A DNA stretch of 64,000 nt. Source: Eledone cirrhosa (taxonomy: Eukaryota). How positions within the stretch are numbered: the stretch's first letter is position 1; every line of letters begins with the position of its first letter. Below are positions 3,819 to 50,010 of the stretch, piece by piece. Position numbers and translations under genes: made by a program. The stretch covers positions 18,786,001-18,850,000 of the forward strand of contig OZ024765.1 in the NCBI GenBank assembly GCA_964016885.1, read 5' to 3'. The notes beneath the pieces were generated by a model, which was given only the letters and a program-made list of their open reading frames with translations, was not told the origin of the DNA and did no database searches.

Positions 3819-3986
3819 AAAGGAATTGTGGTAAGGAACCAAATGGACCATAACGCACCAGTGTACTCAATACTTAGGGTAGTAGAGTGGGAAATAGGAA
3901 AAAGTATGACCCCGACGGCAGAGCTCAAGCCAGAAATAGCCGTCGAAACGGCTTGAGCTCTGCCGTCGGGGTCATACATTTTCCTA
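3819..3986 (-). mobile_element. Hairpin-ended ~165-bp element, copy A
   Basis: Shared ~75-bp tail plus hairpin 3895-3986 ending TTCCTA|(TA)n; relatives at 20246, 38341, 41636, 49200. Confidence 0.8.
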
Positions 3987-4605
3987 TATATATATATATA
4001 TATATATATATATATATATATAATTATATATTCGTGTACAGATATTTTTTCATACACAATAACAAAATATAAACAAACGTATTTATTTCACGAGGTCCGA
4101 TAAGGATAAATATATATCAAATATATAAGAACCCTATAGCAAATATTGTTCTCATTGCTGGCGTATTATCTTCGCTATTTTACGTTCATTGCCACCCAAT
4201 TAAGTTAAACCCCTGGTAATCTACGACGAATTTTTTTTATAAGCACAAAATGTAGACGCAATCCCTAGTCCGAGTTATTCCGTACTTCTCTGCACTGTTT
4301 CAGATAGGAGGGATTAACATGCCAATCTATGTTTAGAATCCCGAGCAACGCCGGGCCATTCTGCTAGTATATATTAAATTGTCTATCTATAGAAAGCTGA
4401 TATTTTTGTCAGTACAGAGTTTGTCAGAATAGTATTTGCAATAGAACTGTTCTGAAGATTTACGTTAAGGTAGAAGATAGTCAGGGCAAAATTAGATTGG
4501 GGTGGAAGTTTTAGATAGTAAGAACACAATTGATGATCTTTATGTATGTATATATGTGTGTAAGTATGTAGGTACGTATGTATGTATGTATGTATGTATG
4601 TATGT

Positions 4606-5020
4606 TACCGGGAGAGATGACCCCTTAGCCTTTGTCAAGGCAGAATTGTAGGAGAAGGAAAACTCTGATATAACACCTGCAACTCTGATGGTATCCAATG
4701 ATGTTGACATGTTCTTCTTTTTGGTAAATATCATCTTGGTTAAGAGAGTGGGACTGGCTTTGTGCAGTGCCTTTGCTCACTATAAAAGCTTCACGGCACA
4801 GGCATTGCTTTATATCTGGAGATCTCTTTGCACTTGTCGTCACATGGTACCATGGGCCCAGCACTATGTGTCAATAATTGTCACATGTGTAGTGTTTGTA
4901 CCAGAGTTTTCAAGTCGCTGGGTGGCCTAAAAAGTCACACTCGTTCAGCGCATCGGTAGGAGTTCTCCTACATGGATATAAAGTAGTGGCCGTACTCGAA
5001 AACGAGTTGGCAGCCACCAT
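4606..5020 (+). mobile_element. Short non-autonomous retroelement, RTE-UTR-like, with (TGTA)n tail
   Basis: Shares GACCCC(T)TAGCCTTTGTC..TAGGAGAAGG, GAGAGTGGGA.TGGC and the 3' end CTCGA.AACGAG..GGCAGCCA.CATGTATG with 5093-5388. Confidence 0.5.
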
Positions 5021-5092
5021 GTATGTATGTATGTATGTATGTATATATGGGTGTGTATGTATGTATGTATTTATGTGTGTATGTTAAACAAT

Positions 5093-5388
5093 GGAGTGAA
5101 GGACCCCTAGCCTTTGTCGGGGCATTCTTCTAGGAGAAGGCAACTCAGGAAACTGGGATAACTCCGACATAAAACCTGCGGCTCAGTAGTTACCGATAAT
5201 GTTATCTCTTCTTTTTTTCGGATTATAGCTACTGTTGCTCAGAGAGTGGGATTGGCTCAGTGCAGAGTCTTGCCTCACTTTAAAAAATAATCTTCACGCA
5301 CAGGCATTGCACGATAGAATTAATTAATAATTATTAATAATGTTATATCATGCAATGGCCAGACTCGATAACGAGGGGGCAGCCATCA
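5093..5388 (+). mobile_element. Second diverged member of the same short retroelement family
   Basis: Same 5' and 3' motifs as 4606-5020 with a different interior length. Confidence 0.5.
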
Positions 5389-5889
5389 TGTATGTATGTA
5401 TGTATATATGTATGTATGTATATCAGGTCACTCTCGAGTGCTACTGATGAAGGCCAGTTAAGTCTAAAATGCATAGACGGTTGTCCCCCTTGCTTCTGCT
5501 GGACACCACCAGAAGGCGTTACCCCCCCCCCCCCCGTGTTTGCATAGCTACGGCTTCCTAAAACTGTATTTCTTAGGAGATACGAAATATTTATATATAT
5601 AAATATGTATATATATTACCGACCCATCCATTTCTTTCTCACTATCACCTCACTATTTCGCTGTTTCTCTCCCTCTCACATAAAACACCCTCTCTCCTTC
5701 TCTCCGTTATCCACCATCCTTCCACCACCAACTGATTCCCTATATGTGGATGCCTTAATCGATAATGTATTGTGGCTTCCAATCACATCATGATCATCCC
5801 TTAAACATCGACTACTGCTGCCCTCTTCTGGGTTTCTATCGAGACAGAAATCAAATTTGATGGCTATAATTATCTCCTTGCTGGACTTT

Positions 5890-47002: not shown

Positions 47003-47010
47003 ACACATCA

Positions 47011-47361
47011 AAAGGCATGAACGTCATTACATCTATTTTTGTTTGGAAATAAAAAGTAGGTTTATAAATATTATTTTTCAGACTACTTTTGTATTTCTTT
47101 CGGTGGCCTATTGGTAGGTATTAGAGACGATGGAGATCCTGGTCTGGGGTTCGATCTCTTTGTATTACGTTTTTTTTTTTAAATAAAAAAATTAAAAATT
47201 TGATCAGACACACTGAGATCGAACCCCAGACTAGGTACTCCACTGGTTGTAATCCCTACCACTAGGCTACCGAAAGGGTTACGAAAATACATTGAAAATT
47301 AATATTTATAAACCTACTTTTTATTTGGAAGCAAACTAATTGTGGTGGCGTTCATGACTTT
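47011..47361. mobile_element. Palindromic element with ~150-bp arms, each carrying a tRNA-like head
   Basis: AATAAAAAGTAGGTTTATAAATATT/AATATTTATAAACCTACTTTTTATT; TTCGGT.GCCTA.TGGTAGG...GTCTGGGGTTCGATCTC on both strands. Confidence 0.7.
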
Positions 47362-47913
47362 CTCAGTATTATTAATGCTACAAAGGGGTCGACATTGGCT
47401 TTTACTTTTCTGGAACTTCAATACAATATAAAACACTTTTTTTTAAATCTATTCTAGGGTTTATTTGAACCCATGACCAGCTGATCTGTAGGCAGTGATG
47501 TTCTTCAACTGTCATACATGACAAATAAAGGCATAGATGTGTGTGTGTCTGTGTGTTAGATTTGATCTTAAATTAGTGTGCTCAGCAATAGCGAATTTTC
47601 AATTTTCCCACCACTCAAACCTTTCTATATATATATATAAATATATATATATACTTATGTGTTTGTGTGTGTAATTTGAAAGTACAACGAAGCTATATAC
47701 ACCCTGATTTGTTTGTTTACAATTACAGATTGAAACCCTGACTACATTTTAAAGTAACGATGACATAACAGTCCCTTGTTAATAAATAAATCTACTGAAA
47801 TTCTTGGTAGGGATTGAGCCCTGCCTCTTTATCTCACTGTTTATTCAGGAAAGAAAGGAACTCGGAAAATTTTAAGAAGAAGTAAGGTGTATATCCTGGG
47901 TTAGTACGTCTTT

Positions 47914-48024
47914 CCAATCAATGTGGACTATAAATAGCACGTGATGTTCCCTGTTGTCAGCTATTTACCATTCTTGTTCGACACACTGTCAGTAAGCTTT
48001 CTCCAGCCGTGAAAGGAGGTCGTG
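47914..48024 (+). promoter_or_regulatory. Candidate Pol II core promoter and short non-coding first exon (unit 1)
   Basis: TATAAATA 47929, TCAGCT with A 30 nt downstream, AG|GTCGTG at 48018; conserved in unit 2. Confidence 0.5.
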
Positions 48025-49079
48025 TTATTTATACCTCTCATATACCACATTTCTTTTATTTATTCATTAGATAACAATACACAAGAGAAAGAATGAATGC
48101 GACAATGTCAGATCTTGAAAAGTAACTTTTATTACATTAGAACATTTTGTGATACTAAGCATCGTATTTTTGTCTCGTTCATTCGGAGACAAGCTGAACA
48201 TTATAAGAAGGGCAAATGACTGCATCTTCAACGGCAATACAATCTACTGAAAATCGAAATGAGAAATTAATTGAAATAGAACACTTACGGAGACCTCAGA
48301 CAGGATTTTTAGCGATATAAATCCCACTTTATTTTGAAAAAAAAACATGTATTTGAGGAGAGTTAATATGCAGCTATATATACATATATATTTTATTATA
48401 TTCGGACAGTATATGTGTAAAACGTAAATATATTTTGACATCGAATTTTGAGGTAGAAAAGCGCCTCATATTTTTTTAACTATATATATATATATATATA
48501 TATATATATATATATGTACATGACTTATATATACATATATAGTTTAATTCATTTTTCATACATCGAATGTATAAAATGCAAGATTTCGGCATCGAATTTT
48601 TAGGTAAAAAGGAGCTTCGTATACCCCTCACCGAAGAATTAGGAATATACATAAATTTGAATTTAAAGGTGGGTAAATAGGTTAAGGAAAAACAGACTGC
48701 AAATGAAATGATATACATAATAAAACATTCCTTTTCCTGACTAAATACAGAAAATTTTAAACGTTTAGTTAAATATGTGCGACAACATTTAAAATACCCC
48801 CGAAAAGACTAAGACAATATTGAAGGAATTCAGAGTAAAACAAAACATAAAACATGAGAATTATTGCGAAATATGTGAAGGAAGATTTAAAGTTTTGAAT
48901 CACACCATTAGAAGATTAATATTTAAATACTAGCACACTGTTCCATATGCCATATGCGTCTTGGAGGCGTTTTGGTTTTCAAAATTAGGGTACGTCCTCG
49001 AGGACGAAACCTCTTCGAAGCCGGGAAATACGGTAAGTTTAAAAAAAAGCTTGAAAATATTCCGATGCAAAAACCCCAA

Positions 49080-50010
49080 GAATAACAACTTTAGAGCGGA
49101 TAATTCTATGAGGGGATATGATAGAAATATATATAATATCTAAATATTAGTACTCTATACAATATATAAAGTAAAAACTTGAATATAGGAAAATGTTGAC
49201 CCTAAATATTGAGTACTCTGGTGCGTTATGGTCCATCTGGTTCCTTACCAGACTTCCTTCGTTATATATATTAGTACATTATTCCAAAGTAAACACCATA
49301 AAAATTACAAATTTGGCACAGATAAAGCTAAGGGGGAGAAATGATAAAATATATAGAAGACATATATATATTAGTACACTATTCCAGGTAAATTTAAAGA
49401 CCTGAACAAATATATATTAGTTCACTATACCAATGTAAACACCATATGAATTACAACTTTGAAAAACGTAAAGCTAAGGGAAGACATGATAGAAATATGT
49501 GAATTAAAATATATCTAAACTAGTCAATATAAATTTAAAGACCTGAACAAATATATATTAGTACACTATACCAATGTAAACACCATATGAATTACAACTT
49601 TGAAAAACGTAAAGCTAAGGGAAGACATGATAGAAATATGTGAATTAAAATATATCTAAACTAGTCAATATAAATTTAAAGACCTGAACAAATATATCTT
49701 AGTACACTATACCAATGTAAACACCATATGAATTAAAACTTTGGAAATCGTAAAGCTCAGGGAAGACATGATAGAAATATGTGAAATATTAAAATATTTG
49801 TAAACTAGTCAATATAGATTTAAAGAACTGAAAATATAAAGTTTAATACTCTATTTATTACACGTTTAGAGGGGAGAAATCACACGCGTGATATGATAGA
49901 CATTTAATTTTATGAAGGGACTTCAAAACACAGTATTTGAGAAGAATTCCTACTAAATATGAACGAGTAAGAAGCGTTGTGGTTAATTTGAACTTGGAAT
50001 GACACTATTA
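49080..50010 (+). repeat. 141-bp tandem repeat derived from a CR1-like LINE 3' coding end
   Basis: Units at about 49389, 49530 and 49671 plus diverged ones; translate ITTLKNVKLREDMIEI, resembling CR1 LxTLExRRLRGDMIE. Confidence 0.6.
49200..49266 (+). mobile_element. Tail-only fragment of the hairpin-ended element (copy E)
   Basis: CCCTAAATATTGAGTACTCTGGTGCGTTATGGTCCATCTGGTTCCTTACCA, reverse complement of the tails of A, C and D. Confidence 0.75.

Follow-up and report, generated by a model that had tools for sequence, protein, structure and literature searches.

The question raised by this stretch of Eledone cirrhosa DNA (contig OZ024765.1 of assembly GCA_964016885.1, positions 18,786,001 to 18,850,000; 64,000 nt, referred to below as the window) is how a short repeat with five copies in it (A to E) comes to carry a hairpin at its end. 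The initial annotation saw a terminal hairpin in flip and flop isomers, either rebuilt at each mobilization by cDNA fold-back or nicked and resolved like a hairpin telomere. Judged by its sequence, each copy is a pair of 5'-truncated pieces, placed head to head, of the pseudo-long terminal repeat (pLTR) of a Hydra-type Penelope-like element (PLE). The two pieces, or arms, start at fixed outer ends, are paired almost strictly as one tail-bearing and one tail-less arm, meet at a variable junction and, where they run far enough, mostly stop in a narrow zone of the repeat. We consider it probable, with moderate confidence, that such copies arise by paired priming on one RNA, at two fixed sites separated by 78 nt, both cDNAs running off near a predicted capped start. 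The hairpin-telomere idea fails, and fold-back is unlikely.

Fixed outer ends and the parent element

Positions are counted from the A of AGTCC in the parent pLTR (+1), the spot where the arms stop, and arm positions were assigned against natural long copies of the parent repeat. The outer ends lie at +138 (tail) and +61 (tail-less), and many full-length copies likewise have their 3' end at +61. The parent continues with TAT at both sites, matching the TA target. Throughout the 3.0 Gb of genome searched, 33,698 ends with the tail and 19,534 without it lie at TA, compared with 368 junctions between the tail and an open reading frame (ORF); the patterns differ in strictness, the tail-less one being stricter. 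TA or a simple repeat follows 69 of 75 tail-less ends, in keeping with a (TA)n preference.

Pairing was counted in two overlapping samples from the first 27 Mb of contig C1, namely 99 of the first 100 tail matches listed and 91 of the first 100 tail-less ends listed. By script, 75 of the 91 tail-less ends have a tail-bearing partner, which overlaps in 64 and stops before the overlap in 11. Locus L228, judged by eye, is a twelfth no-overlap copy (12/91) and raises the partners to 76. The remaining ends either run past +1 (eight, one being L287) or have no partner by script (eight). The L287 insertion is tail-less at both ends and accounts for two of the 91. The resolved partners of the short copies, or stubs, are tail-bearing in 76 cases and tail-less in 2, where half would be expected if the ends were independent (p ~2e-20). 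Seen from the other side, the script finds an inverted partner within 200 nt for 75 of the 99 tail arms; eight arms run more than 100 nt past +1 and 16 have no partner. Inspection of those 16 by eye gives three with a partner that the script missed, one tail/tail pair, one whose partner lies far off and about ten that are solo. Tail/tail pairs number two in 99 (L084, L146). The same pairing of tail and tail-less ends is found in long insertions, and long copies form 25 minus-then-plus pairs within 6 kb versus 2 plus-then-minus (by eye, among the first 100 rows listed).

A 23-nt motif from the tail has 33,915 exact matches genome-wide and its reversed control has none. Locus L037 ties the repeat to an ORF fragment, and searches with it led to copies in which the tail runs into a 5' untranslated region and an ORF; L066 is a pLTR-ORF-pLTR copy ending in (TA)n. 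Intact ORFs encode 719 aa in L251 and 717 aa in L334 and L364, the latter two within tandem arrays with units of 3.53-3.54 kb. Both arrays (L364, G000:C1:437200339-437210962; L334, C1:91476614-91487271) hold at least four tandem units and an intact 717-aa ORF, and would require read-through, repeated jumps or a circular template. No pieces of the parent ORF were found in the window.

The 719-aa product contains YRDD and VIY..YIG motifs and is thus a single ORF with a reverse transcriptase (RT) and, at its C terminus, a GIY-YIG domain, as in endonuclease-positive (EN+) PLEs. Atlas neighbours of the parent protein (0.96-0.99) carry GIY-YIG, RVT_1 and HTH_animal; Pfam and PDB sequence searches with pieces of L069 returned nothing. 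The architecture is likewise that of a PLE, with pLTRs from partial tandems, an inverted 5'-truncated copy and a one-sided tail. A PLE parent with a hammerhead and an RT and GIY-YIG ORF, which the initial annotation had suggested looking for, exists. The Hydra clade is defined by DKT, an RWK-type motif, a CxCX5C linker and CxxC plus CxH (PMC8557442, in part). The parent protein has RLRWR at 35, DKT at 117, CNCPDRSIC at 572, CNLC at 670 and ACKH near 697, that is, RWR and not RWK, and by eye the endonuclease of the L251 protein lacks the CCHH motif. The parent ORF is also colinear by eye with Hydra-1_Obim in the part of the PMC8557442 supplement compared, from which the tail 15-mers and the N-terminal motif are absent. 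By these motifs and this colinearity the parent is a predicted member of the Hydra clade: a putative new family of a known clade, with the known architecture in minimal form, and otherwise an ordinary member. ORFs of other PLEs and of long interspersed nuclear elements (LINEs) adjoin copies at L063, L252, L263 and L265.

Copies in the window and their inner junctions

The arms of the five copies, given against the parent pLTR, and the duplication that holds two of them are as follows.

3818..3931, minus strand: tail-bearing arm of copy A, parent +137 to +24
3930..3987, plus strand: tail-less arm of copy A, parent +4 to +61, ending in TTCCTA followed by (TA)n; 2-nt overlap with the tail arm
3945..3967, plus strand: 3' half of the predicted parent hammerhead in copy A (GAAAC, stem III, GTC cleavage triplet), from sequence and parent fold
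20245..20414, strand not assigned: copy B, identical to A, the same insertion duplicated
38341..38474, minus strand: tail-bearing arm of copy C, parent +138 to +5, beginning at (TA)n
38471..38499, plus strand: tail-less arm of copy C, parent +33 to +61; 4-nt overlap
41639..41743, minus strand: tail-bearing arm of copy D, parent +138 to +34, of the ACCAGTAA subfamily, as in the intact L251
41743..41802, plus strand: tail-less arm of copy D, parent +2 to +61; 1-nt overlap
49199..49262, plus strand: tail-bearing arm of copy E, ending within the tail at about parent +76
49184..49202, minus strand: tail-less arm of copy E, ~18 nt, joined over a 4-nt GGGT overlap; no hairpin
1..9078, plus strand: duplicated segment holding A; its partner, 16383-25527, holds B and is 96.8% identical

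The shared tail (78 nt) is confirmed, and so is the right end at TTCCTA followed by TA, in all five copies. Copies A and B are identical over 171 nt and both sit inside the 9-kb duplication, so they represent one insertion and the window records four events. The direct duplication may be a recent segmental duplication or an assembly duplicate. The hairpins of A, B, C and D are real; their outer arms had been given as 24 bp, and those of A pair over 37 bp. The left end of A and B has no TA tract, and the left flank of A is not (TA)n. Copy E (49184-49262, minus strand) consists of the tail and the last ~18 nt.

The inner segment of C is indeed the reverse complement of that of A and D. C looks like a 'flip' because its tail arm ran further, and A and D look like a 'flop' because their tail-less arm did. 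In 74 pairs with strict end calls, which are used for all end positions quoted because gapped calls near junctions yielded artefacts, the tail arm reaches further in 23, the tail-less arm in 29, and both lie within 2 nt in 22. These pairs have 61 distinct end pairs, a continuum rather than the two isomers of a rolling hairpin. Both asymmetries occur inside four of seven named subfamily groups and the same junction recurs across subfamilies, which argues against movement as a unit in the manner of miniature inverted-repeat transposable elements (MITEs) or short interspersed nuclear elements (SINEs). The tail arm is the one cut short more often (21 versus 7 at 10 nt or more, p=0.013). The earlier proposal that the hairpin is rebuilt at each insertion is supported. 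Random arm end points and one dominant orientation had been named as signs of sporadic inversion or recombination; the inner ends do vary, but the outer ends are constant and the two orientations both occur commonly, so sporadic recombination does not account for the copies. A GGAGTC difference between the arms in the first loci proved to be query bias (2/99 versus 1/75). At L024, L086 and L145, junctions near +1 contain A/T runs that differ in length, some of them mirrored.

The outer arms of C and D differ at four positions, each mirrored in the opposite arm, as had been noted; such mirrored substitutions are mostly subfamily marks, the subfamily segment being identical in both arms of 40/66 pairs (shuffle mean 6.0, maximum 15). 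Rare variants are mirrored in 12 cases versus 1.85 expected, and unmirrored in 113 (46/47 pairs); the arms therefore usually share a source. In 29 of 74 stubs the tail-less arm holds sequence missing from the tail arm, wholly so in the 12 no-overlap copies, and in L052, L055, L065 and L069 it is kilobases longer than the tail arm. This disfavours the proposed cDNA fold-back, because a fold-back copy cannot hold sequence absent from its template.

The stop zone and the hammerhead

Of 120 arms that reach +8, 110 end between +8 and -6, compared with 42 of 162 over the preceding 33 nt. The stop zone thus lies within about 7 nt of an initiator-like A (+1). Forty ORF-linked arms divide into 10 that stop earlier, 6 in the stop zone and 24 that pass +1; those reaching +8 end in the zone in 6/30 cases, versus at most 14/24 over the next 410 nt. 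Long insertions consequently need read-through or a jump. All seven resolved partners of the eight far-running tail arms also pass +1. In L052-L064 the arms that bear ORF sequence frequently come to a stop between +97 and +134 of the 5' repeat, a little beyond the junction of repeat and ORF. A bound protein is perhaps the obstacle, and the query may bias this pattern.

The base at -1 is G in 5,420 arms and A, C or T in 22,531, with A in 3/100 of the first non-G arms listed (~3%). The parent has T or, in a minority of parents, C at this position, and not one of 30 G copies goes on into the sequence of the parent. A spliced exon or leader before +1 was also considered and rejected, the 30 copies having no common sequence there. 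One-base inserts between two arms that both reach +1 are C:G in 15 of 16 cases (by eye, first 50 of 1,133 junctions). When compared with the initiator consensus, 21/21 long copies read YYA(+1)NWYY, and 16/21 have a TATA-like box at -31. The extra G, which resembles that of L1, and the stop zone probably reflect run-off at a capped start, with RNA polymerase II (Pol II) starting at +1 and the G copying the cap; an RT stall or an RNA cut is a lesser possibility, weighed below.

The parent sequence around +1 is composed of ACCCC-UUGANAA-G, followed by a long stem II, GAAAC, stem III, GUC and GGGGU, the part up to and including UUGANAA-G lying upstream of +1. This is a predicted type I hammerhead with core, three stems and an NUH site, whose core UUGANAA has U3-A8 and is not CUGANGA. 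A U3-A8 core has been reported for Schistosoma PLEs (PMC4209133, in part). The constrained hammerhead fold lies 0.8-3.5 kcal/mol from the optimum in three of four parent copies and 7.1 in the fourth. An RNA starting at +1 would lack the 5' half of the hammerhead, hence the 'half hammerhead' of the stubs; 4,629 arms retain the upstream half. The half noticed in the initial annotation is genuine as GAAAC-GGC-loop-GCC-GTC (stem III and the cleavage triplet). The stem II that it proposed, GACGGC-loop-GCCGTC, is created by the inversion junction, the parent stem II being CGGCTA...TAGCCG. Longer parents with CTGANGA upstream of GACGGC, also expected there, did not emerge: none of eight genome-wide matches continues into a common upstream sequence, and most are best explained as chimeric junctions in which the end of one arm meets G-AGTCC.

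Rfam gave no hammerhead match in nine stub loci and none among the best 150 of 457 window matches. The ACGAGTAG subfamily (L081, L147 and others) has a C3-A8 mismatch in the core and is nevertheless abundant, in line with the finding that insertion of the Poseidon element PAc does not require hammerhead cleavage (PMC11167929, in part). Ends at +41 to +43, where the hammerhead would cleave, occur in eight of 99 tail arms; the partners of these arms run further, and CCC overlaps could account for these ends. Two further hammerhead-like sequences were seen. L003 has a different PLE-type hammerhead (CTGACGA ... CGAAAC) beside its copy (1830-1910, minus strand). Window positions 48993-49009 read GTCC-TCGA-GGAC followed by GAAAC, a second stem II plus GAAAC with no upstream CUGANGA and outside this PLE family. 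Elsewhere in the window, 47438-48468 and 60452-61411 are ~64% alike over 1 kb and probably belong to another repeat family.

The proposed paired priming, its rivals and known systems

In the paired priming that we propose, a nuclease, presumably the GIY-YIG domain cutting both strands, would open a TA repeat, and its two 3' ends would prime on the same RNA, the first at +138 and the other at +61. The resulting cDNAs would both run towards the RNA start. Their ends would then be linked, probably by host end joining, across a few shared nucleotides, flush or with inserted filler. The ~170-bp stubs would come from priming in the repeat at the transcript's 5' end. The long inverted insertions would come from priming in a repeat that has sequence upstream of it, whether through tandem read-through or because of a jump from the RNA start. 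L037 (1025-1650) and L043 each show a stub, then a jump into the ORF, then another run as far as the repeat start; this resembles template jumping from the RNA 5' end.

Several observations weigh against this account. The roughly ten solo tail arms would also be given by one-sided deletion of a palindrome, L149, L320 and L287 mix an arm that stops with one that passes, and the arms belong to different subfamilies in 2-3 of 70 insertions (L119, L146, perhaps L100). The 74 junctions comprise 30 overlaps of 1-6 nt, 10 blunt joins, 33 inserts and one 14-nt overlap, as raw counts. Most ORF-linked arms pass +1, and the six that stop near it have stub partners. The start at +1 and the copying of its cap are read from sequence features, each with a weakness: about 12 of the 30 G copies could draw their G from the partner arm, parents with C at -1 can also yield a C:G insert, and in an unselected sample the first untemplated base at +1 is C in only 5/9 cases (12/57 elsewhere). 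The initiator comparison was partly built into the search pattern and the copies are related, and the TATA-like box doubles as a strand of stem II.

Paired priming might still occur with each subunit of a dimer carrying a separate RNA, the tail site being used on one and the inner site on the other. We regard this as doubtful. The cross-subfamily arms of L119 and L146 are what it predicts, a dimer is predicted in PMC11167929 (in part), and concordant arms could reflect one source locus active at a time. The mirrored rare variants speak for a single RNA, as do the arms usually both stopping at or both passing +1 and the more frequent shortening of the tail arm, as though it had run into the inner complex on that same RNA; the strict pairing of sites would also require an extra asymmetry. 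Rather more doubtful is a stop zone of another origin: stalling of the RT at the stem II tip, cutting of the RNA or an end related to a splice acceptor. It would suit the closeness of +1 to the stem II apex, the many arms that run 2-6 nt past +1 and the YAG at -1 to +2 kept in both the T and the C parent variants. A stall gives no reason for a single extra G exactly 5' of the initiator A, and the G copies share no exon or leader.

Fold-back or self-priming (PMC3846280, in part), in which the cDNA folds at the ribozyme stems, copies itself and becomes asymmetric by later palindrome deletions, is unlikely, with a slim chance of being right. It keeps some weight because one-sided deletion could mimic the asymmetry and the partnerless tail arms (~10/99) are about as common as the no-overlap copies, as symmetric deletion predicts; the shared subfamily and rare variants and the mirrored A/T runs at some junctions would also follow from it. 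The sequence held by the tail-less arm alone, amounting to kilobases in long insertions, tells against it. By script, moreover, 10 of the 12 no-overlap copies have a tail-less arm whose end is still no more than 6 nt from +1, and fold-back offers no reason for the fixed stop at +61. Resolution of a nicked terminal hairpin, as in the rolling-hairpin replication of parvoviruses, has hardly any chance of being correct: C against A and D does resemble a bubble that has been inverted, and a T-shaped fold of D is close to the optimum, but the junctions form a continuum with no two-state inversion and the hairpin is missing from the parent and from E. The ORF linked to the repeat encodes RT and GIY-YIG, and no Rep-type motif was seen in it (a separate search of the genome for a Rep or HUH partner was not made).

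Paired priming on one RNA may extend to the whole class. PLEs would then integrate by obligatory paired priming, with one complex, two fixed sites and one RNA, and the inverted copy and one-sided tail seen in PLEs in general would follow from it. With the sites near the transcript start, the default product would be a double strong-stop stub, full copies and tandems would form only by read-through or an LTR-like jump (LTR, long terminal repeat) from the cap, and, with a promoter starting inside the hammerhead, the ribozyme would be whole only in read-through RNA. We put this generalization forward tentatively, as somewhat less likely than not.

Two familiar processes offer parallels. In L1 twin priming both target strands prime and an inversion results, the second primer landing variably and the two parts having no overlap; in the present case the two sites are fixed, and one 60-nt stretch is copied into both arms. 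LTR strong-stop DNA is a cDNA that runs off a capped RNA end. The closest relatives lie in the Hydra clade of C-terminal EN+ PLEs, with which the parent shares the RW-type motif, DKT, CxCX5C, CxxC/CxH around E and N, a short single ORF, a (TA)n target and a pLTR hammerhead (Craig et al. 2021; PMC8557442, in part). It differs from Hydra-1_Obim, which has CUGAAGA, in its U3-A8 core and long stem II, and its 78-nt tail exceeds the 30-40 nt given for PLE tails in the same part of that source. Non-LTR retrozymes (10.64898/2026.07.22.740005, in part) are similarly short PLE-derived repeats tied to a type I hammerhead, but they are direct tandems with whole ribozymes, whereas the stubs are inverted pairs with half a ribozyme, lacking the 5' core, and give no sign of movement as a unit.

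The value of the stubs lies in copy statistics. Tens of thousands of them, from one family, record single insertion events and make the PLE insertion mechanism testable through simple rules: one tail and one tail-less end, a stop at the likely capped start and arms from one template. In genome annotation, stubs of this kind would wrongly end up among MITEs, SINEs or microRNA-like hairpins. We found no account of strict start-site pairing, capped run-off or stubs as the main product in the literature searched, with subscription papers and Repbase outside that search.

For the Poseidon element PAc of Anolis, two internal RT start sites bound the tail in vitro and both strands are cut and extended (Frangieh et al. 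2024; PMC11167929, in part). The two sites described here bound the tail in the same way; PAc primes without homology to the cut DNA, whereas both sites here have TAT matching the TA target. The part of PMC11167929 consulted does not address the pairing of the two sites per insertion or a 5' stop. Inverted 5'-truncated PLE copies with a one-sided tail are already published (PMC8557442, PMC3846280 and PMC8969392, each in part), and their origin is called open in parts of PMC8557442 and PMC11167929. PMC3846280 (in part) ascribes PLE palindromes to self-priming on an antisense template; the stubs favour two primings on sense RNA instead. Compared with the published inverted insertions, most of those found here are the minimal case, with both arms shorter than 140 nt.

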